Below are positions 1 through 21,187 of a stretch of DNA of 64,000 nucleotides, piece by piece; the first letter of the stretch is position 1; each line of letters begins with the position of its first letter. The notes beneath the pieces are model-generated. The model was not told the origin of the DNA and ran no database searches. It was given only the letters and a program-made list of their open reading frames with translations. Both the position numbers and the translations under genes were made by a program. Origin of the DNA: Nitrospirales bacterium (GTDB lineage Bacteria > Nitrospirota > Nitrospiria > Nitrospirales > UBA8639); NCBI GenBank assembly GCA_963422365.1, contig OY729426.1:448001-512000 (forward strand), written 5' to 3'.

Positions 1-569
1 CCTTCCAAGTACAACCCCAAAATCCCCACCAACAACAACAAGCTTCCCGTCAGACTGTACAGCACAAATTTAATGCCGGCTGCTAGGCGTTGAGGTCCTC
101 CCCATAAAATAATCATGAAATACATGGGAATCATGGTGATTTCCCACAACATAAAGAAGAGAAAAAGATCCAAGGCGGTAAAGACCACAATCATCGCCCC
201 TTCCACCAACAGAATCAGCATCATGAATGCTCTGACTCTCGTCGTGATGGAATGCCAAGAGCAGAGGACACAGAGAGGACAGAGCAGCGTGGTCAGCAAG
301 ACCAGTGGGATACTAATGCCATCCACGCCAACGGCATATTGAATATTGAAGGTGGGCATCCATTGCATGCGTTCCACGAACTGCATGCCTTGGTTTCCGA
401 AATCAAAACTGGACCAGAGCATGAGGGACAGGCCAAAATTCAAGAGCGTCGACGCGAGGGCGGTTCGACGAATCCATTCACGATCCTGAACGAATGCCAG
501 AACTGCAATCGCAAGAAACGGAACAGCTATCATCCAACTGAGAAGATGATCAGCAAAAATAAAACTCAT
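1..569 (-). CDS. nuoM: NuoM-like proton-translocating membrane subunit, runs off window start
   Basis: Manual translation from ATG at 569: MSFIFADHLLSWMIAVPF...QFVERMQWMPTFNIQYAVGVDGISIPLVLLT, a typical NuoM N-terminus; lies directly downstream of the NuoL-like gene. Not in the ORF track because it is truncated. Confidence 0.85.
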   Translation of the reverse strand, partial: MSFIFADHLLSWMIAVPFLAIAVLAFVQDREWIRRTALASTLLNFGLSLMLWSSFDFGNQGMQFVERMQWMPTFNIQYAVGVDGISIPLVLLTTLLCPLCVLCSWHSITTRVRAFMMLILLVEGAMIVVFTALDLFLFFMLWEITMIPMYFMIILWGGPQRLAAGIKFVLYSLTGSLLLLVGILGLYLE

Positions 570-612
570 GATACTTTCTTCAGGCAAGACCTCTTGGGGA
601 GCTTCGTGGCAT

Positions 613-2622
613 TCATGACACGAGCCAATAGAAAAGTCCTATGGCCACAACCAGCCAAAGCACCATGACCAAGACATGGTGTTGAAGGATTCGTGGTTCA
701 ACTTTCTGCAACATATGACCTGTGGCATCAGCCTGATACCCCAATCGTTCGACAGGCTTCTCAGGCACACGGATATCAAAAACCTGCCACAGCCATCGGG
801 CAAGGGCAACGGATCCTTCGGCAAGACTCATGATCACGCGATCAATTCCTCCAAGATCAATGGTTTTCCATAACCAGCCGGCTAATCGAAGCATAGGTTG
901 AACCACATACACTTCATAGAGTTCGTCGACATACCACTTGTTGAGAAAAAGCACATACAGCGTTTTTCCCCACTCCGACTGTCCGAATGGGGACCGTCGA
1001 GGATTCCTATGCAGCCAGTAGGCGAATCCCGAACCACTCAATGCCACGACAAGCGGTAACACGATCCACAAAGAGCCCTCAGCCGTTGCAGGCAACTCGG
1101 CAAACAAGGGAACGGGCTGTGGCAGGGCAGGCGCTAAAAATTGAGCAAACCACGTCCAGAAGGCCACCAAAAGGCCAGCCATCACGGCTGCTCCGAATAC
1201 GACCCCGATCAGGTGAGGTGGTGAAAACAACCAAGGGCGAGCGATAAAAGAGCCAGCCTTCCCCTGGATTCCTACGGCAAGACTCTGTTGAAAAAGCGAG
1301 ATGATTCCTCGAAAGAGAGACATGCCCGTACAAAAAACCGTGGTTAAGCCAATCACCCAAAAGGCGACTTTCGCGGAGGCAAAATTCTGGACCGTCCACA
1401 AATATTCATAGGGTCCTGAAAAAATCACAAACGGAGGGATACAGGCTAGCATCAATGCTCCAAAGCACAAGACCCCCGTCGGTCGTAAAGCATGTCGGGA
1501 ATCAGGGTGTGCATGGCCATGGGCTTGGACGGATTGCAGGGCGTTGCCGGTCGATAAGAATAAAAACCCTTTCAAAAAGCCATGGGCCAACAAATGGAAA
1601 ATCGCGACGACGAACGCACCAACGCCACACGTCATGATCATGAATCCGATTTGGCTGATCGTCGAATAGGCCAAAAGCTTTTTAATGTCGGACTGGGTCA
1701 GAGAGACCAGGCCAGCGAACAGTGCGGTGGTCGCCCCAATGATCGCAATCACCGTCATCGCGACGGGAGAAAGCACAAACAACGGGCTCAATCGCACCAA
1801 CAGGAACGGACCGGCGTTTACCATGGTCGCAGCGTGAATCAACGCCGACACCGGAGTCGGGGCTTCCATCGCAACGGGTAGCCACACGTGGAGCGGGACC
1901 TGGGCAGACTTCCCTAAGGCCCCCATAAACAACAAGAGCGTAATGAGTGTCACGGTCTGAACCGGCAGATCGAATCCTGCCCACCCCAGCAGGTTCATGG
2001 TGTGCCCGCTCATGCTCTCGGCCTGAGCGAGAATCTGCTGGATATCGAGGGTCCCAAATGCGGCAAACGTGAGGATGACCCCGAACCCCAGTCCCATGTC
2101 CCCCACCGCATTCACCAAGAATGCTTTGGTTGCCGCTCGGCATGCGGACGGTCGCTCCGCCGAGTGGGAAATCAAGAGATACGAACAGAACCCCATGACT
2201 TCCCAAACAATGTACACGAGAAGCAGGTTGCTACTCATGACCAGCATGATCATGGAAAAGGTAAAGAGCGCAATAATGGCGAAGAAGCGACTATACCGTG
2301 AATCACCGATCATGTAGCGGGAAGCATAGATATGCACGACGCAGCTCACCCCTGTGACCAGCAACAACAGCAACACGGTCAGTTGGTCGATATATAGACC
2401 GAGGTCAACGATGAGATTGCCGGACTGCATAAGTCGATACAAAGGAATAGTAATCGGGCCATTGCTCAAGACTTCGACGAACGCGCCTATCGATAGACCA
2501 AAGGAGAGGCCTAACGCAGGAATAGCGACTTTGTGGCTTTTTTCTCCCAACAAGCGTCCCCCCAACGCGAGAGTCAGAAATGCCGTCAAGGGAAGAAGCG
2601 GGATCAGGACATACGCTGACAT
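613..2622 (-). CDS. nuoL: NuoL/MrpA/DabB(MpsA)-family antiporter-like subunit
   Basis: Motifs WEVMGFCSYLLI, KAFLVNAVGD, GKSAQVPLHVWLPVAMEAPTPVSALIHAATMV, DIKKLLAYSTISQIGFM, HLLAHGFLKGFLFL, NKWYVDELY. Confidence 0.9.
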   Translation of the reverse strand: MSAYVLIPLLPLTAFLTLALGGRLLGEKSHKVAIPALGLSFGLSIGAFVEVLSNGPITIPLYRLMQSGNLIVDLGLYIDQLTVLLLLLVTGVSCVVHIYASRYMIGDSRYSRFFAIIALFTFSMIMLVMSSNLLLVYIVWEVMGFCSYLLISHSAERPSACRAATKAFLVNAVGDMGLGFGVILTFAAFGTLDIQQILAQAESMSGHTMNLLGWAGFDLPVQTVTLITLLLFMGALGKSAQVPLHVWLPVAMEAPTPVSALIHAATMVNAGPFLLVRLSPLFVLSPVAMTVIAIIGATTALFAGLVSLTQSDIKKLLAYSTISQIGFMIMTCGVGAFVVAIFHLLAHGFLKGFLFLSTGNALQSVQAHGHAHPDSRHALRPTGVLCFGALMLACIPPFVIFSGPYEYLWTVQNFASAKVAFWVIGLTTVFCTGMSLFRGIISLFQQSLAVGIQGKAGSFIARPWLFSPPHLIGVVFGAAVMAGLLVAFWTWFAQFLAPALPQPVPLFAELPATAEGSLWIVLPLVVALSGSGFAYWLHRNPRRSPFGQSEWGKTLYVLFLNKWYVDELYEVYVVQPMLRLAGWLWKTIDLGGIDRVIMSLAEGSVALARWLWQVFDIRVPEKPVERLGYQADATGHMLQKVEPRILQHHVLVMVLWLVVAIGLFYWLVS

Positions 2623-2650
2623 AGGCTAGTCCAAAATGAACGATGACACA

Positions 2651-4120
2651 TTACAGCCCCGTGGGCAGAGCAGTCGTGAGCAAAAATCCGACAATCGGAT
2701 CGCTGCACAACCCCAAAATAATAATCGCAGCAGACGCGCCTCCCACACTCACCTTTAACGATAAGGGCACATCGACCGGACTCACCACAGGGGATAATTG
2801 ATTGTCCCGGAAAATACGTTCAAAGAGCTTAATAAAATAGGCCAACGTGAGAAGGGTTGAGACGAGCACGGCCCCGACCGCGAAATAATTCTGAACCTCA
2901 ATAGCGCCAAGGATGATGTACCATTTACCGAAAAATCCACCCGTTGGAGGAAATCCGACCATGGACATCGCCATAATGATGAGCGCACCGGTGATCCATG
3001 GGGCTTGCCCACGCAAACGGTTTAAACCATCGATTGTCCGGACGCCATACTGATAGATGATGGCACCAGCCAAGAAAAACAGGGCCGCTTGCATGACCGC
3101 ATCATTGATCAAATAAAACACGCCTCCTGCAAAACCGGTCGGACTTCCCAGGCCCACCCCGATGAGAATCAACCCAATATGAGAAATCCCGCCATAGGCG
3201 AACATTCGTTTGATTTCATGTTGAGCCAACGCGAGAAATGCCCCGATGACTGCTGCGATGGCCCCCAACTCTTCCAGGAGGACCAGGATAGAAATATGCT
3301 CAATTTCCGCCTGAGGCCCGACCACCCAAAACATGATTCGGACCCAGACGACTAACGCCGCTTTGGTGACCAAAGAAGCGAGGAAAGGTGAAATGGCCTC
3401 CGGTGCATGGGTATAGGCATCAGGCAACCATCCGTGAAGGGGCATGAGGGCCATCTTAATCCCAAGACCGAGAAACATGAAAATCAACCCTCCGACAATG
3501 GCTTTGGAAGTTAATAATTCAGGCACTCGTTGGGCCAAGTCGGCCATGTTCAGCGTTCCAGTCGCTGCATAAAAATATCCAACACCCAATAAATACAAGG
3601 AAGCCCCGAGTGCTCCCAAAATCAGATAACGAAAGGCCGAGATGAGAGCCTTACCACCTGCAACGCCTACCAGGGCATACCCTGATAACGCGGCAACTTC
3701 CAGGAACACGAACACGTTAAATAAATCCGCTGCAAAGATAATGCCCGTGATTGCCGAAAGCAGCAAAAGGATCAACGTATAGTACGGGACGACTCTCCGA
3801 CCCAGCGATTGGGGTGAGAGCGGTCCCTCGTTGATAAGGCAAAGCAATGCCAACAGGCTGAAGGTCACCATGACAACACTTGCCAACCCATCATCGACCC
3901 ATTCAATGCCAATCGGGGCTGCCCACCCGCTAAAGGCGTAGCGAATCTCTCCATCATTCAGGACGACCACGAGATTGGCAAGGGCAAGCGGACTCATGGC
4001 GGAAACGGCCACGAACGCCATGGGGCGACACCACTCACGATGTTTCAATCCGACAATGGGCAAAGAGAGCGCCGTCAAGAAGGGGAGCAGGAAGAGAAGT
4101 GCCGGCAAGTGATGATTCAT
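2651..4120 (-). CDS. mrpD: Mrp/Mnh cation:H+ antiporter subunit D
   Basis: DLFNVFVFLEV, GTLNMADL, GLGIKMALMPLHGWLPDAY, IKRMFAYGGISHIG, GFPPTGGFFGKW. Confidence 0.88.
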   Translation of the reverse strand: MNHHLPALLFLLPFLTALSLPIVGLKHREWCRPMAFVAVSAMSPLALANLVVVLNDGEIRYAFSGWAAPIGIEWVDDGLASVVMVTFSLLALLCLINEGPLSPQSLGRRVVPYYTLILLLLSAITGIIFAADLFNVFVFLEVAALSGYALVGVAGGKALISAFRYLILGALGASLYLLGVGYFYAATGTLNMADLAQRVPELLTSKAIVGGLIFMFLGLGIKMALMPLHGWLPDAYTHAPEAISPFLASLVTKAALVVWVRIMFWVVGPQAEIEHISILVLLEELGAIAAVIGAFLALAQHEIKRMFAYGGISHIGLILIGVGLGSPTGFAGGVFYLINDAVMQAALFFLAGAIIYQYGVRTIDGLNRLRGQAPWITGALIIMAMSMVGFPPTGGFFGKWYIILGAIEVQNYFAVGAVLVSTLLTLAYFIKLFERIFRDNQLSPVVSPVDVPLSLKVSVGGASAAIIILGLCSDPIVGFLLTTALPTGL

Positions 4121-4494
4121 TCCAACCTCTTTAAAATTTCATCTTCATCCAAGCTGCCATATTTCCGATAAATTCCTGCAACCAAGGCTAAAGAGACACC
4201 CAAGGTCGCGACCTGGACCACGATCGCCGTGAGCGTCAACACGTGGGGTAATGGATTGGGATAGATGGGAACCTGGGCTGAGTCTGTTTCAGACAAGAGG
4301 ATAGGAACCGTTGCGCCTGTTTTCACGCTTATCGCCACGATAAAGAAAATCACGCTGGTTTGCACGATATACAGACCAATGAGCTTTTTAACAAGGTTAT
4401 GGTGGGTCACCATGATGTAAAATCCCCCAAGAAACAGGATGACGAAGGCGATAAAATTTGGCCTGTGAAGCCACGCCTCAATGAGTTCAAGCAT
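4117..4494 (-). CDS. mrpC: Mrp antiporter subunit C
   Basis: NLVKKLIGL and NPLPHVLTLTAIVV motifs; ATG at 4494 overlaps the end of the upstream gene. Confidence 0.88.
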   Translation of the reverse strand: MLELIEAWLHRPNFIAFVILFLGGFYIMVTHHNLVKKLIGLYIVQTSVIFFIVAISVKTGATVPILLSETDSAQVPIYPNPLPHVLTLTAIVVQVATLGVSLALVAGIYRKYGSLDEDEILKRLE

Positions 4495-4936
4495 GGGAGT
4501 CCTCGTCTTCGTCATCGAACGACAGACTAAACACGATAGAGATCGCCGTCACAGCGACATCGACCGCCACACCGATTTGTGTCAGCAGGATCCCCAAATA
4601 ACGGCGTGAAGCGACTTCGAGTCCGGGGGTCTCGATGGCAGCGTAATTCAAAAATTCTCCTCCCCCGATCAGACACAATCCTCCGGCACCGGCAAAAATT
4701 AGTAACCCCAGCCCATCCCCATGCAGCATCTTCCTCGCCACATTGCTGGAAGAAGCGCTGGCCCCAAAAATGAGAATTGAGAAAATCATACTCGTGCCAA
4801 AAACAACCCCACCCACAAATCCTCCACCCGGGCCATACTGTCCAAAGAACAACACATACAGGCCAAAGAGTTGGGCCAAGGGAATCAGGACTCGTCCTAA
4901 CGTGAGAACGATGACGCTATCGTGTGCTTGGATCAT
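4487..4936 (-). CDS. mrpB: Mrp antiporter subunit B (MnhB domain)
   Basis: GQYGPGGGFVGG matches the MnhB GHxxPGGGF motif; hydrophobic helices. Confidence 0.85.
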   Translation of the reverse strand: MIQAHDSVIVLTLGRVLIPLAQLFGLYVLFFGQYGPGGGFVGGVVFGTSMIFSILIFGASASSSNVARKMLHGDGLGLLIFAGAGGLCLIGGGEFLNYAAIETPGLEVASRRYLGILLTQIGVAVDVAVTAISIVFSLSFDDEDEDSHA

Positions 4937-5463
4937 TCCCTGCGCCTCCTGAGCAACAAGGCGCAGGCAAGCCCGGATGTGAAGATCACGACCGTTTCAA
5001 TCAAAGTATCGAGAGAACGATAATCCATGAGCACCGACGTGACGACATTGGGCGTATGGGTGTCCTGCAGACTGTTCTCCAGGTAGACAGGAGCAACGTG
5101 AATGCTCGCGGGAGAAGCAGGATCTCCAAATCGAGGAAGATCACTGGCTGCATACAACAGGAGTAACCCCAGCAGAGGTAAGCCGATCAAAGCGGCCCAG
5201 GGAAGGGACGGACGATGCATACGAATATCCTTTTGAGCCGTTCCAAACAGCGTCAAGAGAAAAAACACCGTGGCCAAGCCGGCGCCCACAACCGCTTCGA
5301 CAAACGCCACATCGACGGCACCAAGCCAGGCCCACACCACCGCTAAAAAGAACCCGTAGGCACCTAAAATAAGCACTGCCGACAGCAAGTCTTTGACCAG
5401 AATGGCCCCGGCCGCTGTCAGAATCAGGAGAATCAGGAGAGGAATTTCAAATGAAAACGTCAC
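4933..5463 (-). CDS. DUF4040 / MrpA C-terminal-like subunit (MrpB')
   Basis: AVDVAFVEAVVGAG and TPNVVTSVLMDYRSLDTLIE motifs; GTG start overlaps the mrpG stop (GTGA). Confidence 0.82.
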   Translation of the reverse strand: MTFSFEIPLLILLILTAAGAILVKDLLSAVLILGAYGFFLAVVWAWLGAVDVAFVEAVVGAGLATVFFLLTLFGTAQKDIRMHRPSLPWAALIGLPLLGLLLLYAASDLPRFGDPASPASIHVAPVYLENSLQDTHTPNVVTSVLMDYRSLDTLIETVVIFTSGLACALLLRRRRE

Positions 5464-5759
5464 TGTTGTTCTCGTACCCACGGTTTGAGGCCCGAGCGAA
5501 AAGCCGCTCGAATGGTGGCGTGTGCAATGACAGGATTGATCAGATAGATCAGCGCGAGCACCACCAGAATTTTAAGCAAATTCATGCTGAATCCTTGATA
5601 GACGGCCAACCCTGCCAATATCAGAAACGCCCCCAAGGAATCCGTCAGTGAGAGCGCGTGGGAGCGGGCAAACACATCCGGCAAGCGCACCATGCCAATT
5701 GCCGCAACGACCAGAAAAAACAAACCAACAAGAATGAGCACAATGGCAATCACAGACAT
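5460..5759 (-). CDS. mrpG: Mrp antiporter subunit G
   Basis: GMVRLPDVFARSHA...NPVIAHA. Confidence 0.9.
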   Translation of the reverse strand: MSVIAIVLILVGLFFLVVAAIGMVRLPDVFARSHALSLTDSLGAFLILAGLAVYQGFSMNLLKILVVLALIYLINPVIAHATIRAAFRSGLKPWVREQQ

Positions 5760-6026
5760 TTACACATTTCCTCGCTGTTCAAGAAACTTGGCAATGGCCA
5801 AGGCCCCAACCAAATTCAACAGGGCATACCCCGTGGAGATATCCACGAACATGTCGACTCGTTCGTAGACGGTCCCGATCAGCACCAGCAAAATAATGGC
5901 TTTCGTCGAAATCCCATTCAGACCCAACACGCGGTCAAAGACCGTAGGCCCTCGGACCACACGATATAAATACACCAGAATGAGGACAGCGAGCACGATC
6001 AACACGCACAGAAAAAAGAATTTCAT
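5760..6026 (-). CDS. mrpF: Mrp antiporter subunit F
   Basis: RVVRGPTVFDRVLGLN; three TM helices; ends ...LAIAKFLE. Confidence 0.9.
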   Translation of the reverse strand: MKFFFLCVLIVLAVLILVYLYRVVRGPTVFDRVLGLNGISTKAIILLVLIGTVYERVDMFVDISTGYALLNLVGALAIAKFLEQRGNV

Positions 6027-6037
6027 TCTGAACTCGT

Positions 6038-6493
6038 TTATTCCTGGAACACCTGGCCAATTTTTTCTTCAAGGCGTTGTGTGGTCAGATCGTGGCCCGA
6101 TTCATCGTCTATGGCATGGACGATGAGTTCCTGGGCATTGACTTCGGCCGTGATCGTGCCTGGAGTCAGCGTGATGGAATTTCCAAGTAGGACCACGGCT
6201 TCCTGTCGCAGCAACTTCGTTTGATAATGAATGAGCTTCGGCGCAATCGGAAGAGAAGGATGAAGAATGAGCGTAGTCAGATGAAGGCTACTTTGCACAA
6301 TGCGCCCAAATAGCCAAGGCAGATACCCCAGAATTCGCCACACAAGTATTTTTCGAAAAAGAGAATCTGAGTGGCCCGAATTCAACCATGCCACGCCAAA
6401 AGATACTATCAGCCCTAGACCCATATGGAACGGGTTATACTTTACCGATAAAATGAGCCAAATAATAAAAAACGCGACTGTTTTAAGAAACAC
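6038..6493 (-). CDS. mrpE: Mrp antiporter subunit E
   Basis: LLGNSITLTPGTIT...LIVHAI signature. Confidence 0.9.
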   Translation of the reverse strand: MFLKTVAFFIIWLILSVKYNPFHMGLGLIVSFGVAWLNSGHSDSLFRKILVWRILGYLPWLFGRIVQSSLHLTTLILHPSLPIAPKLIHYQTKLLRQEAVVLLGNSITLTPGTITAEVNAQELIVHAIDDESGHDLTTQRLEEKIGQVFQE

Positions 6494-6609: not shown

Positions 6610-6712
6610 AAAAAAAGCCAACCGGATGCCTCGAATGAATCATTCGAAAAGCCTCTGGTTGGCTTGTACTGTGCCTGCCCGTTCACTTGCTAGGCAGTCA
6701 CCCTACCGGCCA
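6610..6712 (-). promoter_or_regulatory. Candidate attenuator/riboswitch leader, copy 1 (upstream of mrpE)
   Basis: RNA GGCCG-GUAGGGUGA-CUGCCU...GGGCAG-GC-ACAGUACAAGCC overlapping terminator AAGCCAACC...GGUUGGCUUUUUUU; same architecture as copies at 11703 and 14699. Confidence 0.75.
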
Positions 6713-8653: not shown

Positions 8654-11600
8654 TCATCCAATGGGTTCCCATGTGGCATCGGGATGATAGCGATGAAACA
8701 CAAAGGTATGTGGATCGAGGGCCAAGAGATTGAGCCATTGGTTCTGGAAGAGTTGCTGCAGGATCGCATGCTTCTGAATGATGGACGCGATTCGACTCGG
8801 CGGCGCTTCAATAATACCCAGAAGCCGCATCGGTTCGTGATAATGGACGTCACCGTCGTTGACCGTCTGTAAGGGAAATCCTATCTGCAAATCACTCTGG
8901 CTTCCCAACATCACCCCCACGCCCGACACGACGTTGTGGATCACCTTACTCCCACTTCCATAGTGCCACGGATCAACGGCGGAAAAGTAATATCCGGTGT
9001 TAATCCACTCTCCGACGATCAATGGGGCCGTCATGATTTTTTCGAGATTGTTTCCCTCCGCGTCGGCAAGCGGATCATAGGAATGTAAGAAGACGCGACC
9101 GCCTAAATTCAGGCCTTTGGTCAGGCTTCGACGCCCGATTAAAAAAGCCGCATTGCCGGCCAGCCCCCATTCCGGTCGAGGATTGGCCCAATCGCGGCTG
9201 CGTTCCTCGACGTGAGCCAACGCCTGTTGAGGAGAAATCCCGGTCGGCGCGCTTGGAATGCGATGACATCGTTCCAATGCTTGGGTCATGCCCGCTTGTT
9301 CCAAATCCCGGCTCAACACCTGTACATCCTCCGTATGACTCTCGGGCAAGTCTTGCAGATCATAAAACGTGACCCGATCAGTGGTGGTATTGTGCTTGGC
9401 CGGCAGAAACCAGGTATCCTCAGGAATGGGCAATCCCTTTTCGTTGAGGATGCGCCGAACCTCCGGTTCGTTGGCCATGGCCGCAAACACGCGTGCGTTG
9501 GCGTCCCCGGGGTTGCCTCCGCAGGCCCCGCAATCCAATGCCGCGAAATATGGATTGTTGTCCGTCTGACTTCCATGCCCACAGAGCACGACTAGCCGAC
9601 CGTAGTTCCGGGTCAACCCCATGACCCGAAGCCCATTCTCGATGAAGGTGGCCCGCTCGGTAAGGGAGAACCCTTGTGCGAGCCCAGCGGAATCCCTTCG
9701 GGCTTCATCTCTCCCCATTGGGGATTGCCTGGATCGGACGGTGAAGACACCGAGATCTGTGTCGGAACCGGACGGGGAACCCCTCCTTGAAGTTTTGATT
9801 GAATCGCATGGAACGCTTTGGGAATCAGCGTTTTGCCGATTAACCCGAGACTAAAGAAAAACCCCAGCACGTCAATCAGCATCATCGACCCGACGGGATT
9901 ATGTTTTAGATCGTGAAAGAGATGACGACCCAGTTGCTGCCATTGCGCCCCGGTCGAATATTGCTGCAAGGCGCGTTCTTCGCCGAGTCGAGGAATTTCC
10001 GTTACCGCATGGTTGGGAGAAAGTAACACCGGGCATAAGGCAGACCGTTCCTCGCTATCAAAGGCTTGATGACTGATAGGAATACCGAAAAACCCGGCGA
10101 ACCCAAGCGTTTCATACGGACCCTGCGCCTCGACGTGTCGACGGAACGATTCCGATCGGACATCAATGCAGCACACGAGTTGTGCGCGCGGGCGAGTGCC
10201 GAGTGGCGGCACCGTTCCGCGATGGGCCGAAAGTTTTTGGATGATCTCGCCTAGAAAGGCATCTTCATACGCTTCAAGCCACACCGGGCCGTGCCGATCC
10301 AGGGGAAAGACATCCAGCCATCCTAATACCATTCGCGCCTCAGCCACGGAAAGATCGGTCATCTCGAGAGGTGACAGCTCCAAAATTTGAGCAAGGTGAA
10401 ACAGCCGCCAGGCATCACGGCAGATCGCCTGTTCCGCGGCATCGACCGCATGCGTGCCTTCCCCCATTCGGTTCTTGTATTCATCCGGACGATCCTGCCA
10501 GTAGGCGATCAGCGCCGAAACGTTTCCGTCAATCCCCCATTCTCGCTGACAGGCCACATGCGTCAATTCGGATTCATAAAACACACGCACCGCCAGATAC
10601 TGAACGGCATCAACAGGGTGTTTTTGTTGCGCGTGATACGCGGGATTCGTCTCAAGCCAACGAACGTATCGCGTCCAACCCGGCAATTGGGATAACTGCC
10701 GTGAGAGGTAATCGCTCCAGAGCTCCTGTGGAATGCCCAGACGATGCAGACTCGACACAATCGCATCCTCAGGCTCAGGCGGAAGATTGTTGACTTTCTC
10801 CCGTAAATCTCGAATGCCCAAAAAGCGGCTGGACCGATCGCGTTGCGCAAGCTCTCGCCAAGCCGCATAGAATCCCCCGTGCCTGCAGGGCATTTCCCAT
10901 CCGGCTAATCCTTCATCGACAAACGCCGCAAACCATTTGATGAGTTGGTTATTGATCTGTTCGACCAAGTCCGTTCCAGCCAAGACATCCACCCAATCGC
11001 TGGTGGTTTGCTGAGACGGCAAGGCAATGTCGATGGAAGCGCGTGGCCCCTCTGACACGTTTAGGCTTGCATGCCCGGCGGCGTGGTCGCCGGACAGAGC
11101 ATCGGACAGCCCTAATGCCGACAATATGGCTTGCCACAGCTTCGCAAGATACGCCTCCTCGGGATGATCCCGACATTGCTCACACTCTCGGAGCATTCGC
11201 TCGATGATGCGTTGTCTGGATTCGTCTGAAAGGTCGTGGCGAAATCGTTTCGTGGCTCCATCACCGCCGAGTTCCCATTGCAGCAGGGCGGGCTCCAACG
11301 CCTCAAATCCAAACACCACATGCCCATGCCACACCTCATCGACCGTGATCCGACGACTCCCGACCGTAATCGCCTGTTGTGTGTCCTGTCGAGGGCCCAT
11401 TCGCGCTAAGGCCCGGTTGAGACTGTCGCGGGTGATGCGTCCCGCTCGATAAAACCGACGATACTCTTCATTAGGCAAGTACCCATTTCCACCAAGAAGC
11501 TGTTTGCCTTTTTGAACGGCCTGATCAAAGGGAAGATATTCGAATCCGTGCAAGGGATTTTGGGCAACCATGACTTGCATGGGCCAAAAGGGTGGAATCG

Positions 11601-11679
11601 GTTCGCTAGCCTGGGCAACCGTCTGGCGGAGCAGATCGCGTTCTTCTTGGGAAATCGCATGCATCGACGTGGTGCTCAT
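8654..11679 (-). CDS. dabA: DUF2309 / DabA (MpsB) beta-carbonic-anhydrase-like subunit of the inorganic carbon pump, split by one frameshift near 9683-9685
   Basis: N part (9613-11679): PFWPM..VAQNPLHGFE, QLPGW, CIDVRSE, GFAGFFG, CPVLL. C part (8654-9718): GHGS..NNPY..ALDCGACGG, HNTTTD, DWANPRPEWGLAGNA, FLHSYD, YHEPMRL. One extra G in CTG GG(G) CTC joins the frames (~1008 aa). Confidence 0.9.
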
Positions 11680-11702: not shown

Positions 11703-11800
11703 AAAAAACCAACCGTTTTCGTTCCATCCATCTCAGAAAAACACGGTTGGCTCGTCCTGTCACTGAACGCTTTGTCGGGAAGCCCAGCCACCACACAGCC
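11703..11800 (-). promoter_or_regulatory. Candidate attenuator/riboswitch leader, copy 2 (upstream of dabA)
   Basis: RNA GGCU-GUGUGGUG-GCUGGGC...GUUCAGU-G-ACAGGACGAGCC overlapping terminator AGCCAACCG...CGGUUGGUUUUUU; ends ~23 nt before the dabA ATG. Confidence 0.7.
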
Positions 11801-11992
11801 TTCGTTCGTAGGTCAGACTCAATCCGGGACCACCTGCCTGCTTTCATGTGCATACCTGCCTCAGGGAAGCAGGGGGGGCTCTCCTTGACCTCTACAAAGT
11901 CATGGCTTATACCATTGTTATATCAGGGACTGCAGACGGGCTCAAGAGATTTCTGGTCAGCCAAAAGCTCTTCCAACCCTGTGACCCCCCCT

Positions 11993-12364
11993 ATGAAAAA
12001 TGGATCGACCAAAGGCGAAGTTGAGACAGCCATCCGCAATGCCGTCATCAAATTCGAACAAGAATTTATGGGGCGCGGGCCGACCGAGGTCAAGGCGTTC
12101 ATCCTTCATGACATAGTCTTGGTACGGCTCAAGGGCGTCTTGACTCCAGCCGAGCGTCAACTCGCGAAAAATACTGAGGGGGTTGATATGGTCAAACGCA
12201 TGCGGCAGAACCTGATCTCACAAGGACGGGAAAGACTCTGTAGCCAAATTGCAGCCATTACCGGGACAGAAGTCACAGGCCTGTTCACCGATATCGAAAC
12301 GCACATCGGTGAGCGGATGATTGTCTTTACTCTTGAAAATGACCTCGACAATACCTCTCGCTAG
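11993..12364 (+). CDS. mpsC: DUF2294 / MpsC family protein
   Basis: TKGEVETAIRNAVIKFEQEFMGRGP..VLVRLKGVLTPAE..L.TDI....GERMIVFTL; divergent from dabA; ATG 11993 preferred over the longer track ORF. Confidence 0.88.
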   Translation: MKNGSTKGEVETAIRNAVIKFEQEFMGRGPTEVKAFILHDIVLVRLKGVLTPAERQLAKNTEGVDMVKRMRQNLISQGRERLCSQIAAITGTEVTGLFTDIETHIGERMIVFTLENDLDNTSR

Positions 12365-13025: not shown

Positions 13026-14666
13026 CTAGCCCTTAGGCTTTACGTGAGCAGCCACGATGGAGTCAGCCATCGGGCGGTGCTGGGCCAACCCCCGAATGAA
13101 CAACTCACAACCCTTTTCTTCGAATTCGTTGGTCCATTCATAAAGTTTTGACATCACGGTGTGATCGACAAGTCGCGTCTCGGCCAGATTCAGGGTAACT
13201 GTTTTCCCTTCCTCGAGAAAGCGATGAAGATGCTTGCGCAAGGGAATCCACGTACTGAAGACGGCGGACTCTCGCACCACAATGATCGCTGAGTGATCAT
13301 CTTCATGCGTGACCTCAGCATGTAATTTGAAAAACGAGGGAATCGGTGCGCCATTCATGATGTGAATGGCGACCTTGACTCCTATTCCAATGCCGATTCC
13401 CAACAGGAGATCTGTCGCAAGCACGCCCACGATCGTGGACACAAACACAATGAACTGGTCTTTTCCCAAATGATACATATGGAGAAACTCTTGTGGAGAC
13501 GCCAACCGAAACCCCGTAAAGACCAACAACGCGCCTAAGGCCGCCAGAGGGATCTGGTTGATAATCCCTGGAATCACGGCGACGAATGCCAGCAGACACA
13601 GCCCATGAAACATGTTGGCAAATCGCGTCCTCGCCCCATTATCGATGTTCGCTTTGCTTCGAACGATCTCCGAAATCATCGGCAACCCGCCCACCAAGGC
13701 CGCCAGCGTATTGCCGAGGCCCACGGCAAGCATGTCTCGATCCAAATTCGTCTTTCGCTGCCAGGGGTCGATCTGATCGATGGCCTTCGCACTGAGTAAC
13801 GACTCAAGGCTCCCAATTAAGGCAAACATGATCACGTACTTGATTCCGATCGAAGTGGTTAACCCTGAGAAATCCGGGAACGTGAGGGCATTGAACATGT
13901 TCTTCGGAACATCCACCAAAAACTTTGTTCCTACAGCAGCCGTCTGCTCATGAACGGTGTAGGTGGCTTCTTGGCTGATATTCAAATACAGCCCCATGGG
14001 AACCGCGACGAACAACACAAGCATCGGCGCTGGAATCACTTTCCATTTGGGGTGTTTGATCAGCGTAGACCCAACCATAATGAGGAGACTCACGATCCCG
14101 ATCAAGCCAATTTTGGGATTCATCTCCATGACAAAATTCGGGATACCGGCCAACAACTCTAATGGGGTGCCTTCTGGGCTCAGCCCCATGACCACCGGAA
14201 ACTGTTTGGCGATGATGATGACCCCGATGGCTGACAATAATCCATGAATCGCCGTTGTCGGGAAAAATTCCCCAAGAATCCCGGCACGGAAGACCCCGAA
14301 CAAAATTTGAATGAGGCCTGCGGCCACCCCGACTCCAAGCGCTAACCGATAGGCTTGAAAGTCGGCAGCAGGATCCTTCCCGCCGGTAAACCCGAATTCA
14401 GTCACACACCCGATGGCGATCACGATGAGTCCAGCAGCCGGGCCTTTGATCGTGAGTTCTGAATTACTAAAGAACGTGGCCATGATGCCGCCGATAATGG
14501 CGGTAAAGATGCCGGCAATGGCAGGATACCCACACGCCAAGGCAATGCCGAGGCACAGTGGAAGCGCAATCAGAAAAACAAGAAATCCGGAAAGAAGGTC
14601 TGCCCTCCAGTTTTGCTGAAGTCCGGCAAGTGTTCCTCTCGGTATCTCTGCTCCATCAGTGTTCAT
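13026..14666 (-). CDS. SulP/SLC26 family anion (probably bicarbonate) transporter with C-terminal STAS-like domain
   Basis: DLLSGFLVFLIALPLCLGIA, GPAAGL, SLESLLSA, GGLPMISEIVRS, IPLAAL, DLLLGI; substrate inferred from dabA context; alternative GTG start at 14675. Confidence 0.9.
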   Translation of the reverse strand: MNTDGAEIPRGTLAGLQQNWRADLLSGFLVFLIALPLCLGIALACGYPAIAGIFTAIIGGIMATFFSNSELTIKGPAAGLIVIAIGCVTEFGFTGGKDPAADFQAYRLALGVGVAAGLIQILFGVFRAGILGEFFPTTAIHGLLSAIGVIIIAKQFPVVMGLSPEGTPLELLAGIPNFVMEMNPKIGLIGIVSLLIMVGSTLIKHPKWKVIPAPMLVLFVAVPMGLYLNISQEATYTVHEQTAAVGTKFLVDVPKNMFNALTFPDFSGLTTSIGIKYVIMFALIGSLESLLSAKAIDQIDPWQRKTNLDRDMLAVGLGNTLAALVGGLPMISEIVRSKANIDNGARTRFANMFHGLCLLAFVAVIPGIINQIPLAALGALLVFTGFRLASPQEFLHMYHLGKDQFIVFVSTIVGVLATDLLLGIGIGIGVKVAIHIMNGAPIPSFFKLHAEVTHEDDHSAIIVVRESAVFSTWIPLRKHLHRFLEEGKTVTLNLAETRLVDHTVMSKLYEWTNEFEEKGCELFIRGLAQHRPMADSIVAAHVKPKG

Positions 14667-14698
14667 GCTCGTCACCCCATTTATCCTGTACGCGGCAG

Positions 14699-14799
14699 AA
14701 AAAAAGCCGGTTGCTCTTCAGGGATCATGTTCCCGAATGCTCAACCGGCTTGTACTGTCGCTGGCCTCAGACAGCCGATAACCAGCTACCCTACACACC
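14699..14799 (-). promoter_or_regulatory. Candidate attenuator/riboswitch leader, copy 3 (upstream of sulP)
   Basis: RNA GGUGU-GUAGGGUA-GCUGGUU...GGCCAGC-G-ACAGUACAAGCC overlapping terminator AAGCCGGUUG...CAACCGGCUUUUUUU. Confidence 0.75.
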
Positions 14800-14935
14800 T
14801 GCCTATTCAAAGTGAGCCATCAAACAACAAAAGTCTCACCATTTCGTTTTGTTCGATTTTGAAGAATTTTATCTCGATGGCCTCTCGGGAGCAACCGTTT
14901 TTCTTTCCGCTAAAGAATTCCTCGCATGCCCAACA

Positions 14936-17861: not shown

Positions 17862-19790
17862 ATGCGAATTTTTCGAAGATTTAACAACCTTCCGATTGAG
17901 AAAAAGCTCCTTCTCGCCTCGGTTATTCCTATTCTCACGCTCGGTGTCCTCAGCATCGTCACCTTTAATAGTGTTCAAACCTTTTCTCAAGATGAAGACC
18001 GGCTCAACCAAGTGTATCATATTCAAACTACTGCCGCCGACTACTTGCGACTGATTGTCGATTTAGAGACCGGCTTCCGCGGATTCGTCTTAACTCTCCA
18101 ACCAAAATTTCTGAATCCCTATCATGCAGCGAAACAGCGCGTGTTACAGGTTGGACGGACCCTTGCCCAAATGGTGGAACACGATAACAAACAACACGCT
18201 GAAATCTTGCAAGCGCAATCCCTGGTTCAAACGTTACTGAAAGATAAGGATCGTTTGATTGAACAAGCGAAGCTAGGCCATTCGGATCAAGCGCTTCAGT
18301 ACATCGAATCCGGGGCAGGACGGGGGCTGATGTTGAACATTCGAGAACAAATTGCTCGTTTTGATAAGCGGGAAGGCGATGTCTTACGACAGACCTTGGA
18401 ACGAGCATCGCATGACCGGGGCTTTCTTTTGAGTGTGATTGTGGGTGGAGGATCGCTGGCTCTTATCCCCATGGTGTTTGTTCTACGTCTTTTAGCGCAA
18501 TCGATTGCCGGTCCCTTGGTCACTCTGGCCAAATCTGTTGAAAACCGACCAGGCGGGACTGTCCCGGACGTCCCGATCTTAGACCGAGGAGATGAAATCG
18601 GTGACTTGACCAGAGTCATGCACGAGATGAGTCAGCAAATTCGAGAATTCATTGGTCAAATCCAAAAATCGGAAGCTGAGTTGCGCAACCTGAATATGGA
18701 CCTGTCGAATTCAGAATCCAAATATCGGGGAATTGTGGACCACGCCCCCTTTGGTATTTTTACCGCCAAGGACGGCCGAATTATTTTTTGTAATCGCCAT
18801 AATTGGATTCTGGCCGGACAAGATCCAGACGATCCCTTGGACCCGGAATGTATCTGGGATGCCATTCACCCCGGTGACCGCAACCAAGTGTATGGGTCGT
18901 TCTCGAAGGCGACGGGGCAACAGGTTCCCTTTGAAAATGTCTTTCGTTTTGTTCATCCCGATGGGACCACGCATAAGGTCCTGAGCCGCGCAATCCCCAT
19001 TAAAAATGGACAAGGGGGCGGTTCGCTGTATCAAGGCTTTAATGTTGACATCACCGCTTTTGAACAAATGAAGGAAACACTCAGCCGGACGGAACGCCTC
19101 GCCACCTTGGGACAGGTAGCAGCAGGCATCGCGCATGAAATTCGAAATCCCCTTGTTGGCATCGGCTCAACGACTTCGTTACTCATGGAAGATTTTCCGA
19201 ATGAAGACCCCAAACGACAGGACCTGCAAACGATCCTCAAAGAAACCCGCCGGCTGGACCGGATCGTGACTCAGATTGTCGAATACGCCAGACCTCGTGA
19301 CATCGTCCCAGGGTCATTTGAGATGGCCGCGCTTGTTGAAGAAACCTTGGACCTCTTACGGCATCCTGTCGACCAGAAACACCTCAACGTGACCGCGACC
19401 TTTTCCCCGGAACTTCCTGCACTCGAAGCCGATCGTGATCAGGTCAAGCAAGTGGTGCTCAACGCGATTCAAAATTCCATCGAGGTCTTAGGAGAGAACG
19501 GGACAATTCGGGTCGAAGCCCGAGAGGAATTACGAGACGGGTACAGAGGGCTGCTCACCACCATTCATGACAATGGGAAAGGAATCAGCCCGGAGGATCT
19601 CCCGAAAATTTTTGATCCCTTTTTTACGATGGGGAAAAGACGAGGTACAGGGTTGGGGTTAGCCATCTGCCGAAATATCATTGAAGCTCATGGGGGAAGC
19701 ATCCGGGCTGAGAGTCAAGTGGGGGTTGGAACCGTCATGTCCATCTGGCTTCCGTTAACCCTTCAACAACAACCCGCAACCGTGGCCTAA
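17862..19790 (+). CDS. Sensor histidine kinase (CHASE3-HAMP-PAS-HisKA-HATPase)
   Basis: DLETGFRGFVLT (CHASE3), DEIGDL (HAMP), IHPGDR (PAS), IAHEIRNPL (H box), DNGKGI, FDPFFT, GTGLGL. Confidence 0.93.
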   Translation: MRIFRRFNNLPIEKKLLLASVIPILTLGVLSIVTFNSVQTFSQDEDRLNQVYHIQTTAADYLRLIVDLETGFRGFVLTLQPKFLNPYHAAKQRVLQVGRTLAQMVEHDNKQHAEILQAQSLVQTLLKDKDRLIEQAKLGHSDQALQYIESGAGRGLMLNIREQIARFDKREGDVLRQTLERASHDRGFLLSVIVGGGSLALIPMVFVLRLLAQSIAGPLVTLAKSVENRPGGTVPDVPILDRGDEIGDLTRVMHEMSQQIREFIGQIQKSEAELRNLNMDLSNSESKYRGIVDHAPFGIFTAKDGRIIFCNRHNWILAGQDPDDPLDPECIWDAIHPGDRNQVYGSFSKATGQQVPFENVFRFVHPDGTTHKVLSRAIPIKNGQGGGSLYQGFNVDITAFEQMKETLSRTERLATLGQVAAGIAHEIRNPLVGIGSTTSLLMEDFPNEDPKRQDLQTILKETRRLDRIVTQIVEYARPRDIVPGSFEMAALVEETLDLLRHPVDQKHLNVTATFSPELPALEADRDQVKQVVLNAIQNSIEVLGENGTIRVEAREELRDGYRGLLTTIHDNGKGISPEDLPKIFDPFFTMGKRRGTGLGLAICRNIIEAHGGSIRAESQVGVGTVMSIWLPLTLQQQPATVA

Positions 19791-19792
19791 AC

Positions 19793-21187
19793 ATGCGAGC
19801 ATCGATTTTTGTCACCGATGATGATGAAGTCGTTCGATCGTCGATCACCCGCCGATTAACGCGCGACCAGCACGACGTTCGCAGCTTTGACTCTGGAGAA
19901 GCTCTTCTCGAGGGATTGGACCACGATATTCCCGACATGATCCTTCTCGATCTGAAAATGTCAGGCATGACCGGCATCGAGACACTCAAACATATTCGGC
20001 CCAAAGCCCCGCAAACGCTCGTCATCCTTTTGACCGCCTACGGGACCATTGAAGATGCCGTCGAAGCCATGCGATTAGGGGCCTACGACTTTTTGATCAA
20101 AAGCGTTGATCTTTCCGGTGTCGGTCCGGTTGTCGAACGAGCGATTGACTACTTGACCCTCCGTCGCCGGGTCAGTTTTGAAAGCCAAGACCGTGCCGGT
20201 CGATATGCACTCAAGGATCTCATCGCCAACAGCCCCGGCATGCGAGGGCTGGTCGCTCAGGTTCAAGAATTGAGCCAAAACGCGAAAACCACTGTCCTTC
20301 TCCAAGGTGAAACCGGAACAGGCAAGGAATTCATTGCCCGCGTCCTTCATCACAATGGGCCACGACAGGATGCGCCCTTTGTCGGCGTGAATTGCACGGC
20401 CATTCCCCAGGAATTATTTGAAAGCGAACTGTTTGGTTACGAACGAGGTGCGTTTACCGGAGCCGCTCAGCGAAAGCCTGGGCTCTGTGAACAAGCTGAA
20501 GGGGGGACGCTGTTTTTAGATGAAATCGGCGATCTTAATCATTCAATGCAAGCCAAGCTGCTTCGCGTCCTTCAGGAACGCTCCTTCAAACGGCTGGGGG
20601 GGCAAGAAGACATTACGGTGGATTTCAGGCTGATTGCCGCGACGCATCGAGAGTTGAAAAAGGAAGTGAGCCAAGGAGCTTTTCGGGAAGATTTATTTTT
20701 TCGGCTCAACGTCGTGTCTTTGGACCTTCCGCCACTGCGAAAACGCGTTGAAGATATTTATCCCCTGAGTCTTCACTGCTTGTTTCATCATAGCCGGGAT
20801 ATCAATAAAGACATTGGCGAGATCGACACGGGTGCCCGAGCACTTCTTGAGCGCTACGCGTACCCAGGCAACATTCGTGAGCTAGAAAACATCATCGAAC
20901 GAGCCGTGATCTTTTGTCATGGAAAAACGTTAACATCTGGGGACTTGCCCCGGGAACTCCATGGGGAAACAAAAAAAGTCATTTCATCCACCACTCAAAA
21001 CGACGAACCGATTCTCAGGTTGGAGATGGCGTTAGGGCAGCAAACATTGGCGGAAACTGAATTCACGATCATTGAGGAAGTAATGAAACTCTGTGGACAG
21101 AATAAAACGTTAGCCGCTCAAAAATTAGGACTCACTCGGTTTGCGCTGGACCGACGCTTGAAAAAAATCTCTGATGAATCGGAATAG
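19793..21187 (+). CDS. sigma-54-dependent response regulator (NtrC/AtoC family)
   Basis: Receiver domain; GETGTGKE; ESELFGYERGAFTGA; LFLDEIG; YPGNIRELEN; C-terminal Fis HTH. Confidence 0.95.
   Translation: MRASIFVTDDDEVVRSSITRRLTRDQHDVRSFDSGEALLEGLDHDIPDMILLDLKMSGMTGIETLKHIRPKAPQTLVILLTAYGTIEDAVEAMRLGAYDFLIKSVDLSGVGPVVERAIDYLTLRRRVSFESQDRAGRYALKDLIANSPGMRGLVAQVQELSQNAKTTVLLQGETGTGKEFIARVLHHNGPRQDAPFVGVNCTAIPQELFESELFGYERGAFTGAAQRKPGLCEQAEGGTLFLDEIGDLNHSMQAKLLRVLQERSFKRLGGQEDITVDFRLIAATHRELKKEVSQGAFREDLFFRLNVVSLDLPPLRKRVEDIYPLSLHCLFHHSRDINKDIGEIDTGARALLERYAYPGNIRELENIIERAVIFCHGKTLTSGDLPRELHGETKKVISSTTQNDEPILRLEMALGQQTLAETEFTIIEEVMKLCGQNKTLAAQKLGLTRFALDRRLKKISDESE

Follow-up and report, generated by a model that had tools for sequence, protein, structure and literature searches.

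MpsC (DUF2294) as a candidate RNA-binding regulator of carbon-uptake operons that share a leader RNA in Nitrospirales

What does a small DUF2294 protein do when its gene lies among carbon-uptake operons whose leaders carry the same RNA hairpin? The question is raised by mpsC in a closed 2.5-Mb genome whose relatives are Nitrospirales; the window referred to below is the whole 64,000-nucleotide stretch of that genome that was analyzed. To our knowledge, the adjustment of CO2 and bicarbonate uptake outside cyanobacteria and proteobacteria is little described. A literature search, mostly of open-access papers, returned no regulatory role for MpsC, YbcI, or DUF2294 and no such RNA, and the supplement of the 224-motif paper PMC5737381 may list the motif under another name. 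In the available text of a 2025 review on antiterminators there is no mention of MpsC, DUF2294, YbcI, or bicarbonate (PMC12591593), and in that of the work on Staphylococcus aureus MpsABC, MpsC is given no role and is said not to be collocated with mpsAB outside staphylococci (PMC6689103). We lean, with slightly more confidence than doubt, toward MpsC being an RNA-binding antiterminator that acts on the leader hairpin, probably at low inorganic carbon.

The locus and its leader RNA

The mpsC gene (DUF2294/YbcI, PF10057; 11993..12364, plus strand) encodes a candidate RNA-binding regulator of 123 amino acids and is single copy genome-wide. Its product matches PF10057 with 122.6 bits (cut-off 23) over model positions 1 to 110 of 111. 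The gene is flanked by sulP and dabA, and the mrpE operon is about 5.5 kb away; dabA, from which mpsC is divergent, starts at 11679 on the minus strand. That strand carries, around mpsC, sulP, dabA, htrA, and an Mrp-like operon running from mrpE (6493) to a NuoL-like gene. The original prediction had described a DUF2294 gene divergent from dabA, set among motif-bearing operons and without the motif in its own leader. The Pfam match, coordinates, and strands confirm the first point, and the second holds as well, since copies of the RNA were found only ahead of mrpE, dabA, and sulP.

The putative targets are all on the minus strand. The sulP gene (13026..14675) encodes a SulP/SLC26-family permease (PF00916) that scores below the curated cut-off of the BicA and DauA models; we infer bicarbonate transport from its gene context. 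The dabA gene (PF10070; 8654..11679) appears in the window as two frames, most likely one gene, with Pfam matches on both halves. The apparent frameshift lies in 9613-9718, and one extra base behind 9688 is present in three DNA runs from two studies (X4, X5, and X6); the split is therefore most likely an assembly error and the gene intact. The third target is the membrane operon of Mrp-like subunits from mrpE to the NuoL-like gene (613..6493), which extends past the window start and matches MNHE, PhaG, MbhD/E, MnhB, Oxidored_q2, and Proton_antipo in Pfam. DabA is thus tied here to a multigene Mrp-like operon (window 1-6493) and not to a simple dabB.

Overlapping divergent sigma70-like promoters, for mpsC on the plus strand and dabA on the minus strand, were picked by eye at 11885..11945; the pair is tentative because it is absent from the promoter-scan list. 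Separately, a sigma54-like site (TGGCAC-N5-TTGC, about 12770-12753, minus strand) lies between sulP and mpsC and points antisense into mpsC and onward to dabA. The genome has six such sites in all, and this one is seen again in 6 of 73 loci of relatives; a sigma54 two-component pair is encoded at 17862-21187. In family f13, dab leaders without the RNA (L227, L229, L231, L232, L230, and L240) have sigma54-like motifs instead, as judged by eye, and these are possibly an alternative control of the same dab pump.

A covariance model of the short hairpin, R1, which has the three window copies among its training rows, detects three copies genome-wide and no more, each on the minus strand. They lie in the leaders of mrpE (6656..6712; E value, 3.8e-13), dabA (11744..11802; 8.5e-10), and sulP (14742..14800; 2.9e-12), and the nascent fold supports them as well. 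The dabA copy, an antiterminator hairpin, is the least typical of the three; it shares an intergenic region with mpsC but is on the other strand, at a distance of 191 nt from where mpsC starts. The genome-wide R1 search found no copy ahead of mpsC on the plus strand. Folding z-scores are -3.7 (mrpE), -1.6 (dabA), and -4.2 (sulP). A typical copy is a hairpin interrupted by a 2x2 internal loop of purines, in which GG faces AG, and a long terminator follows directly. Plain repeat and terminator scans missed both the motif and its long terminators. Rfam 15 gave no match in the window at gathering score, and none on any of the three leaders even at E values up to 10.

The hairpin is conserved as a structure. 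In an alignment of 57 copies picked from 92 matches, pairing holds in 93.7% of cells, and two-sided changes are seen at 9 of 12 pairs; none of 500 shuffles reached the observed covariation, and all slid controls were far lower. A profile search of 80 Nitrospirota mpsC loci gave 88 copies, spread over 70 of the loci, and the next gene was sulP (28 copies), dabB-like (22), dabA (17), mrpE (17), or unidentified (4). One strong copy (L090; G091:C1:2097754-2097812) precedes sulP in a closed genome whose nearest mpsC is about 760 kb away, as would be expected for control in trans.

In all three leaders a terminator with a U-tract follows the hairpin. The terminators, taken from minimum free energy folds of the minus strand, span 6610..6665 ahead of mrpE (U-tract from 6616), 11703..11753 ahead of dabA (U-tract from 11708), and 14699..14751 ahead of sulP (U-tract from 14705). 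In computed folds of the nascent RNA up to the hairpin end, the 5' GG pairs with the CC of an AAGCC foot in all three copies, in the dabA copy GG at 11800-11799 with CC at 11750-11749. The same foot, at the 3' side of the hairpin, is also the 5' arm of the terminator in each of them. In the short variant, conservation is lower at this basal pair than elsewhere (49 and 30 of 57). By computation, the terminator is more stable than the antiterminator state by 7.3 (mrpE), 6.1 (dabA), and 4.9 (sulP) kcal/mol; the computed default is therefore off, and it takes something to hold the foot. In a run guessed to be RNA, one contig covers 6764-6608 and ends in an untemplated tail at the mrpE terminator, a faint hint only because four other tails end at unrelated places.

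We propose that MpsC would bind the conserved leader hairpin and, when bound, would prevent the foot from pairing into the terminator. Read-through into sulP, dabA, and the mrp genes for carbon uptake would follow, probably when CO2 or bicarbonate is scarce. The signal may be direct binding of bicarbonate or CO2, a partner, or phosphorylation in receiver fusions. The opposite sign is quite unlikely: MpsC would bind the RNA as a repressor that promotes termination under abundant inorganic carbon, and without mpsC the genes would stay on. In the computed fold of the sulP copy, the terminator state is compatible with the upper internal loop, a feature that would suit such a repressor, but the computed default is already termination.

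Co-occurrence of the RNA with MpsC and decay after mpsC loss

The original prediction had named phylogenetic co-occurrence as a check, with a motif common in genomes lacking DUF2294 as the finding that would speak against it. Among 151 Nitrospirales genomes, MpsC occurs in 108 and the R1 RNA in 110, with 103 genomes having both, 7 the RNA only, 5 MpsC only, and 36 neither. The RNA is thus present in 103 of 108 genomes with MpsC versus 7 of 43 without. In an overlapping sample of 151 Nitrospirota genomes, MpsC was found in 40, R1 in 30, and both in 28, leaving R1 in 2 of 111 MpsC-negative genomes. The motif is therefore not common without DUF2294 in either sample; on the RNA side this comparison covered Nitrospirota genomes plus four records from outside. 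DabA is present in 136 of the 151 Nitrospirales and in 66 of 66 genomes of the window's own family, f1. In f1 the RNA occurs in 42 of 43 genomes with MpsC versus 7 of 23 without, although DabA is universal there, and the RNA therefore tracks MpsC, not the target. These counts overstate independence because mpsC is physically linked to most copies and the genomes are related.

The seven RNA-only Nitrospirales differ in kind. G240 has a frameshifted mpsC in place, and the assembly of G260 is fragmented, with the match on a contig of 2 kb. In G073 and G174, remnants of dabA are preceded by altered copies, and G127 has such an altered copy together with a strong copy ahead of sulP. In G214 and G222, an mrp operon that looks intact is still preceded by a diverged copy and a terminator. 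The copies in G127, G214, and G222 count against MpsC as an obligate activator.

They also fit a stand-alone riboswitch that would respond to bicarbonate, CO2, pH, or a small ion, with mpsC as a cassette passenger in another role, since all three MpsC-negative genomes keep a copy with its terminator. The targets are coherent for inorganic carbon, small ion-sensing riboswitches such as the Na+ class control transporter genes (PMC9337991), and mpsC is dispensable for MpsAB function (PMC6689103). Against this, a riboswitch should persist with its targets, and the f1 genomes just described do not show that. In addition, mpsC is usually divergent from or upstream of the RNA, so that co-regulation cannot explain the linkage. 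In the dab operons of MpsC-less Nitrospirota, no intact copy was found in 16 regions, barring two altered ones. We consider a stand-alone riboswitch unlikely.

The fate of the leaders after mpsC loss bears on the same choice. We compared MpsC-positive loci with 16 loci of MpsC-negative genomes, of which 14 have an orthologous dabA; the dabA frames are full-length in the 12 that were checked. A strong copy was defined as one scoring 25 bits or more with a profile trained on MpsC-positive loci. In the mpsC-loss loci, strong copies were found in 0 of 12 mrpE and 1 of 9 sulP leaders, versus 17 of 28 and 28 of 35, respectively, in MpsC-positive loci. Overall, 1 of 21 leaders without mpsC has a strong copy versus 45 of 63 with it, the sulP-dabA-mrp operon being kept, in counts uncorrected for kinship and for the physical linkage of mpsC and the RNA. 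A riboswitch would be expected to survive here along with its genes. Remnants of intermediate score were seen in 5 of 21 leaders without mpsC versus 1 of 63 with it. The mpsC-loss sequences have eroded cores, lost U-tracts, or deleted leaders, and remnants of mpsC itself are left in three of the loci. The decayed mrpE and sulP leaders are kilobases away from mpsC and were not part of its deletion.

Decay did not always take the same part of the element. In the dabB leader of G103 the hairpin is kept and the terminator lost, and terminator-like hairpins survive at 6 of 12 mrpE and 3 of 9 sulP leaders of MpsC-negative loci. Survival of the terminator at about half of the MpsC-less mrpE leaders would fit a repressor, but several MpsC-less loci have lost the U-tract or the whole leader, which would not. 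With the RNA mostly decayed in relatives without MpsC, MpsC likely operates the switch. The new element here is this decay of the RNA after mpsC loss while the targets persist. Genome comparison gives good support for a pairing between MpsC and the leader RNA.

A longer RNA variant beyond the Nitrospirales

Other Nitrospirota families, records of Anoxybacillus and Acetoanaerobium, and metagenome loci have a long variant of the RNA flanking mpsC. It consists of GGnAGA, a stem of 8 to 9 bp, a purine internal loop, a variable tip, and UAARCC followed by a terminator. The training copies of its model, R2, 27 in number, were selected by a pairing rule, and the covariation of R2 is therefore partly circular. 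R1 and R2 find none of each other's copies, so we infer homology of the two variants from the common foot, the internal loop, and the mpsC neighbor.

R2 was searched in the best 80 of 570 metagenome mpsC loci, ranked by likeness to the Anoxybacillus protein, and it matches 47 of them; 27 of these 47 gave no training row, with a few being near-duplicates of training loci. A complementary terminator arm, which is absent from R2, follows 30 of 30 non-training matches versus 58 of 752 control sites. Of 52 matches, 40 lie on the mpsC strand no more than 200 nt downstream of the gene, and R2 is found in none of the 111 MpsC-negative Nitrospirota genomes. The foot is nearly invariant in the long variant (GG in 54 to 55 of 55, CC in 54 of 55). 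These best-conserved bases form a foot present only in the antiterminator fold, which argues against MpsC as a repressor.

The genes behind the long variant change from locus to locus. Of 54 next open reading frames, 30 handle CO2 or bicarbonate: 12 dabB-like genes, 11 of which are then followed by dabA, 9 for phosphoenolpyruvate carboxykinase (PEPCK), 6 for SbtA, and 1 each for biotin carboxylase, PurE, and isocitrate dehydrogenase (IDH). The others are 6 MpsC paralogues, 11 members of other families that are not carbon genes, and 7 frames without a family, of which 4 actually precede dabB-like genes. mpsC is the constant neighbor of the long variant while these targets change. Tandem long-variant copies lie between mpsC and dabB in three loci (L147:6452-6580, L148:6451-6578, and L155:6442-6555), an arrangement that suggests double gating.

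Two candidate copies were set aside. An element that seemed to wrap around the mpsC frame in Acetoanaerobium was dropped because a local hairpin explains the sequence. By-eye copies in the S. aureus-type mpsA leader and in the stretch after mpsC were not upheld by R2, the mpsA leader giving a nonsignificant E value of 8.5. The region upstream of ndhF (mpsA) is known as RsaX05, annotated as "cis-acting leader of ndhF?" (PMC2790875).

A constant neighbor may still act indirectly. A general factor, such as a Nus factor or an unrecognized protein, would then bind the hairpin, and MpsC would be a sensor, an adaptor, or a PII-like transporter partner. Consistent with this, 5 of 108 MpsC-positive Nitrospirales have no RNA, and divergent MpsC paralogues are common in that sample. 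However, of these five MpsC-only genomes, two (G121 and G245) have stops in mpsC and two (G079 and G145) are without an intact dabA, and no second constant neighbor gene was found across both RNA types in the annotated loci. We rate indirect action as improbable, the least likely of the alternatives weighed here.

The MpsC protein among known attenuation systems

The type II KH or RbfA-like RNA-binding fold has the topology alpha-beta-beta-alpha-alpha-beta. The AlphaFold2 (AF2) model of MpsC (pLDDT, 94.6) has a helix, two strands, two helices, and two strands with a four-stranded sheet, and this order would fit that topology plus one strand. Nearly invariant residues are E11, G27-R28-G29-P30, D40, R45, G48, L50, E54, L57, G63, K68, R71, L74, D100, and E107; the conserved features include an MGRGP turn, and acidic residues are as many as basic ones. 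The original prediction had suggested looking for an RNA-binding surface by structure prediction, and the predicted fold has no significant match to an RNA-binding family. A sequence search of solved structures gave no matches with MpsC, Foldseek with the model gave none at an E value of 0.001, and the ESM Atlas gave no usable match. In VIA the best Z score was 7.0, in the range of common arrangements and from unrelated rows; RbfA chains scored 5.3 (root mean square deviation, 3.6; 89 aligned), 4.8, and 4.5, below unrelated rows, and hhalign of MpsC with the genome's own RbfA gave a probability of 0.1%. CAT, HutP, and ANTAR are not among the VIA matches listed, where absence does not exclude them. 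The failure of fold and profile searches to recognize an RNA-binding fold, and the acidic residues among the conserved ones, are points in favor of indirect action.

Domain fusions point to a regulatory part for MpsC. Two of 17 longer proteins scanned (P0222 and P0242) are receiver-MpsC fusions, so that MpsC probably serves as a regulatory output domain; the same scan has tandem MpsC domains as well. Carbonic anhydrase and MpsC domains are found in one protein in P0284 and P0286, and in L128 (L128:551-1111) the immediate neighbor of mpsC is a carbonic anhydrase gene. Distant DUF2294 paralogues lie directly ahead of a 2-hydroxyacid/formate dehydrogenase-like frame (L138:4001-5532) and of fdhD (L085:11962-13131); these two, with CO2-linked neighbors, have no model-significant RNA copy. 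MpsC-like sequences also occur in viral records: a 595-kb record labeled phage encodes one with 39% identity (L139; LR756511.1:93813-94165), and a protein scan of viral contigs gave one locus on a second large contig (L140). Four RNA pattern matches on viral contigs were discarded as chance, all lying inside one phage gene.

The S. aureus system gives evidence against MpsC as an antiterminator. Growth in air is normal after mpsC deletion, and Escherichia coli is complemented by mpsAB under its native promoter in the absence of mpsC (PMC6689103); an obligate activator predicts otherwise, and a repressor would fit both observations. However, the S. aureus-type mpsA leader is no significant R2 match, and records of the same source include a second, distant DUF2294 gene. 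In favor of an antiterminator, the mpsA mRNA falls 1.7- to 2.5-fold at 5% CO2 (PMC6689103); against it, mpsA was reported to rise with bicarbonate plus oxacillin in two strains (PMC10269494). S. aureus MpsABC is like the locus studied here in having mpsC beside a DabAB-type transporter and an mRNA that is down at high CO2; it differs in that the collocation is said to be staphylococcal only (PMC6689103), whereas here it is widespread with dab in Nitrospirota and other loci. The original prediction, that MpsC may be an antiterminator, is partly supported: it gains from the pairing with the RNA, the decay after loss, the terminator anatomy, and the fusions, and loses from the searches that gave no significant match to an RNA-binding family and from the staphylococcal deletion without a growth phenotype.

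The ribonucleic antiterminator (RAT) hairpin bound by BglG, SacY, and LicT has internal loops. In that system a target hairpin overlaps and excludes an intrinsic terminator, where for MpsC the holding by a protein is proposed, and the regulator gene lies beside or between its targets (PMC12591593). BglG-type proteins have CAT and PRD domains and control sugar operons; MpsC has only PF10057 in 123 amino acids, and the genes here concern CO2 and bicarbonate, with an RNA that has no Rfam family. HutP of Bacillus subtilis (hutP-hutH) is, like MpsC, a small single-domain alpha/beta protein, and hutP is directly upstream of the terminator it controls, a placement that mpsC shares in 40 of 52 long-variant matches; HutP, however, is a hexamer activated by histidine and Mg that binds single-stranded NAG triplets (PMC12591593), whereas the RNA here is a hairpin with purine-rich internal loops. 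ANTAR domains (AmiR, NasR, and EutV) are modular RNA-binding outputs, alone or behind a receiver, and MpsC is also receiver fused; an ANTAR domain is a three-helix bundle on dual hairpins (PMC12591593), whereas MpsC is predicted to be alpha/beta and the leader RNA is one rod-like hairpin. MpsC has no ANTAR Pfam match, and its AF2 model has four strands and three helices. The Na+ riboswitch (DUF1646 motif) shares with our RNA a small leader, a terminator platform, and ion-transport genes, but it has two stems with a conserved P1 bottom and P2 loop (PMC9337991), where ours has one hairpin with a variable apical loop; a relationship was dropped because of the two stems. The MpsC system would work like RAT, HutP, and ANTAR attenuation but belongs to none of them.

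A larger claim is possible, and we regard it as rather doubtful. MpsC would be the first inorganic-carbon-sensing RNA-binding protein, would read CO2 or bicarbonate directly through one domain whose fold is without a solved relative, and would run a cross-phylum attenuation regulon of DAB pumps, SbtA, SulP, PEPCK, PurE, and biotin carboxylase. The RNA variants of this regulon would be specific to lineages, and receiver-fused forms of MpsC would have been rewired to respond to other inputs. The suggestion that MpsC senses inorganic carbon comes from the target genes.

MpsC had earlier been set aside as nonfunctional after its deletion gave no growth phenotype. If MpsC is indeed an antiterminator on the leader hairpin, a widespread domain of unknown function would gain a function, and a family of RNA-binding antiterminators with an uncatalogued RNA would be added to those known. 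A protein of 123 amino acids and an RNA of 60 nt are directly testable and could serve as a CO2-responsive genetic part. In the biology of these bacteria, one regulon would join carbon pumps and carboxylases in nitrite oxidizers, bacilli, and other lineages.
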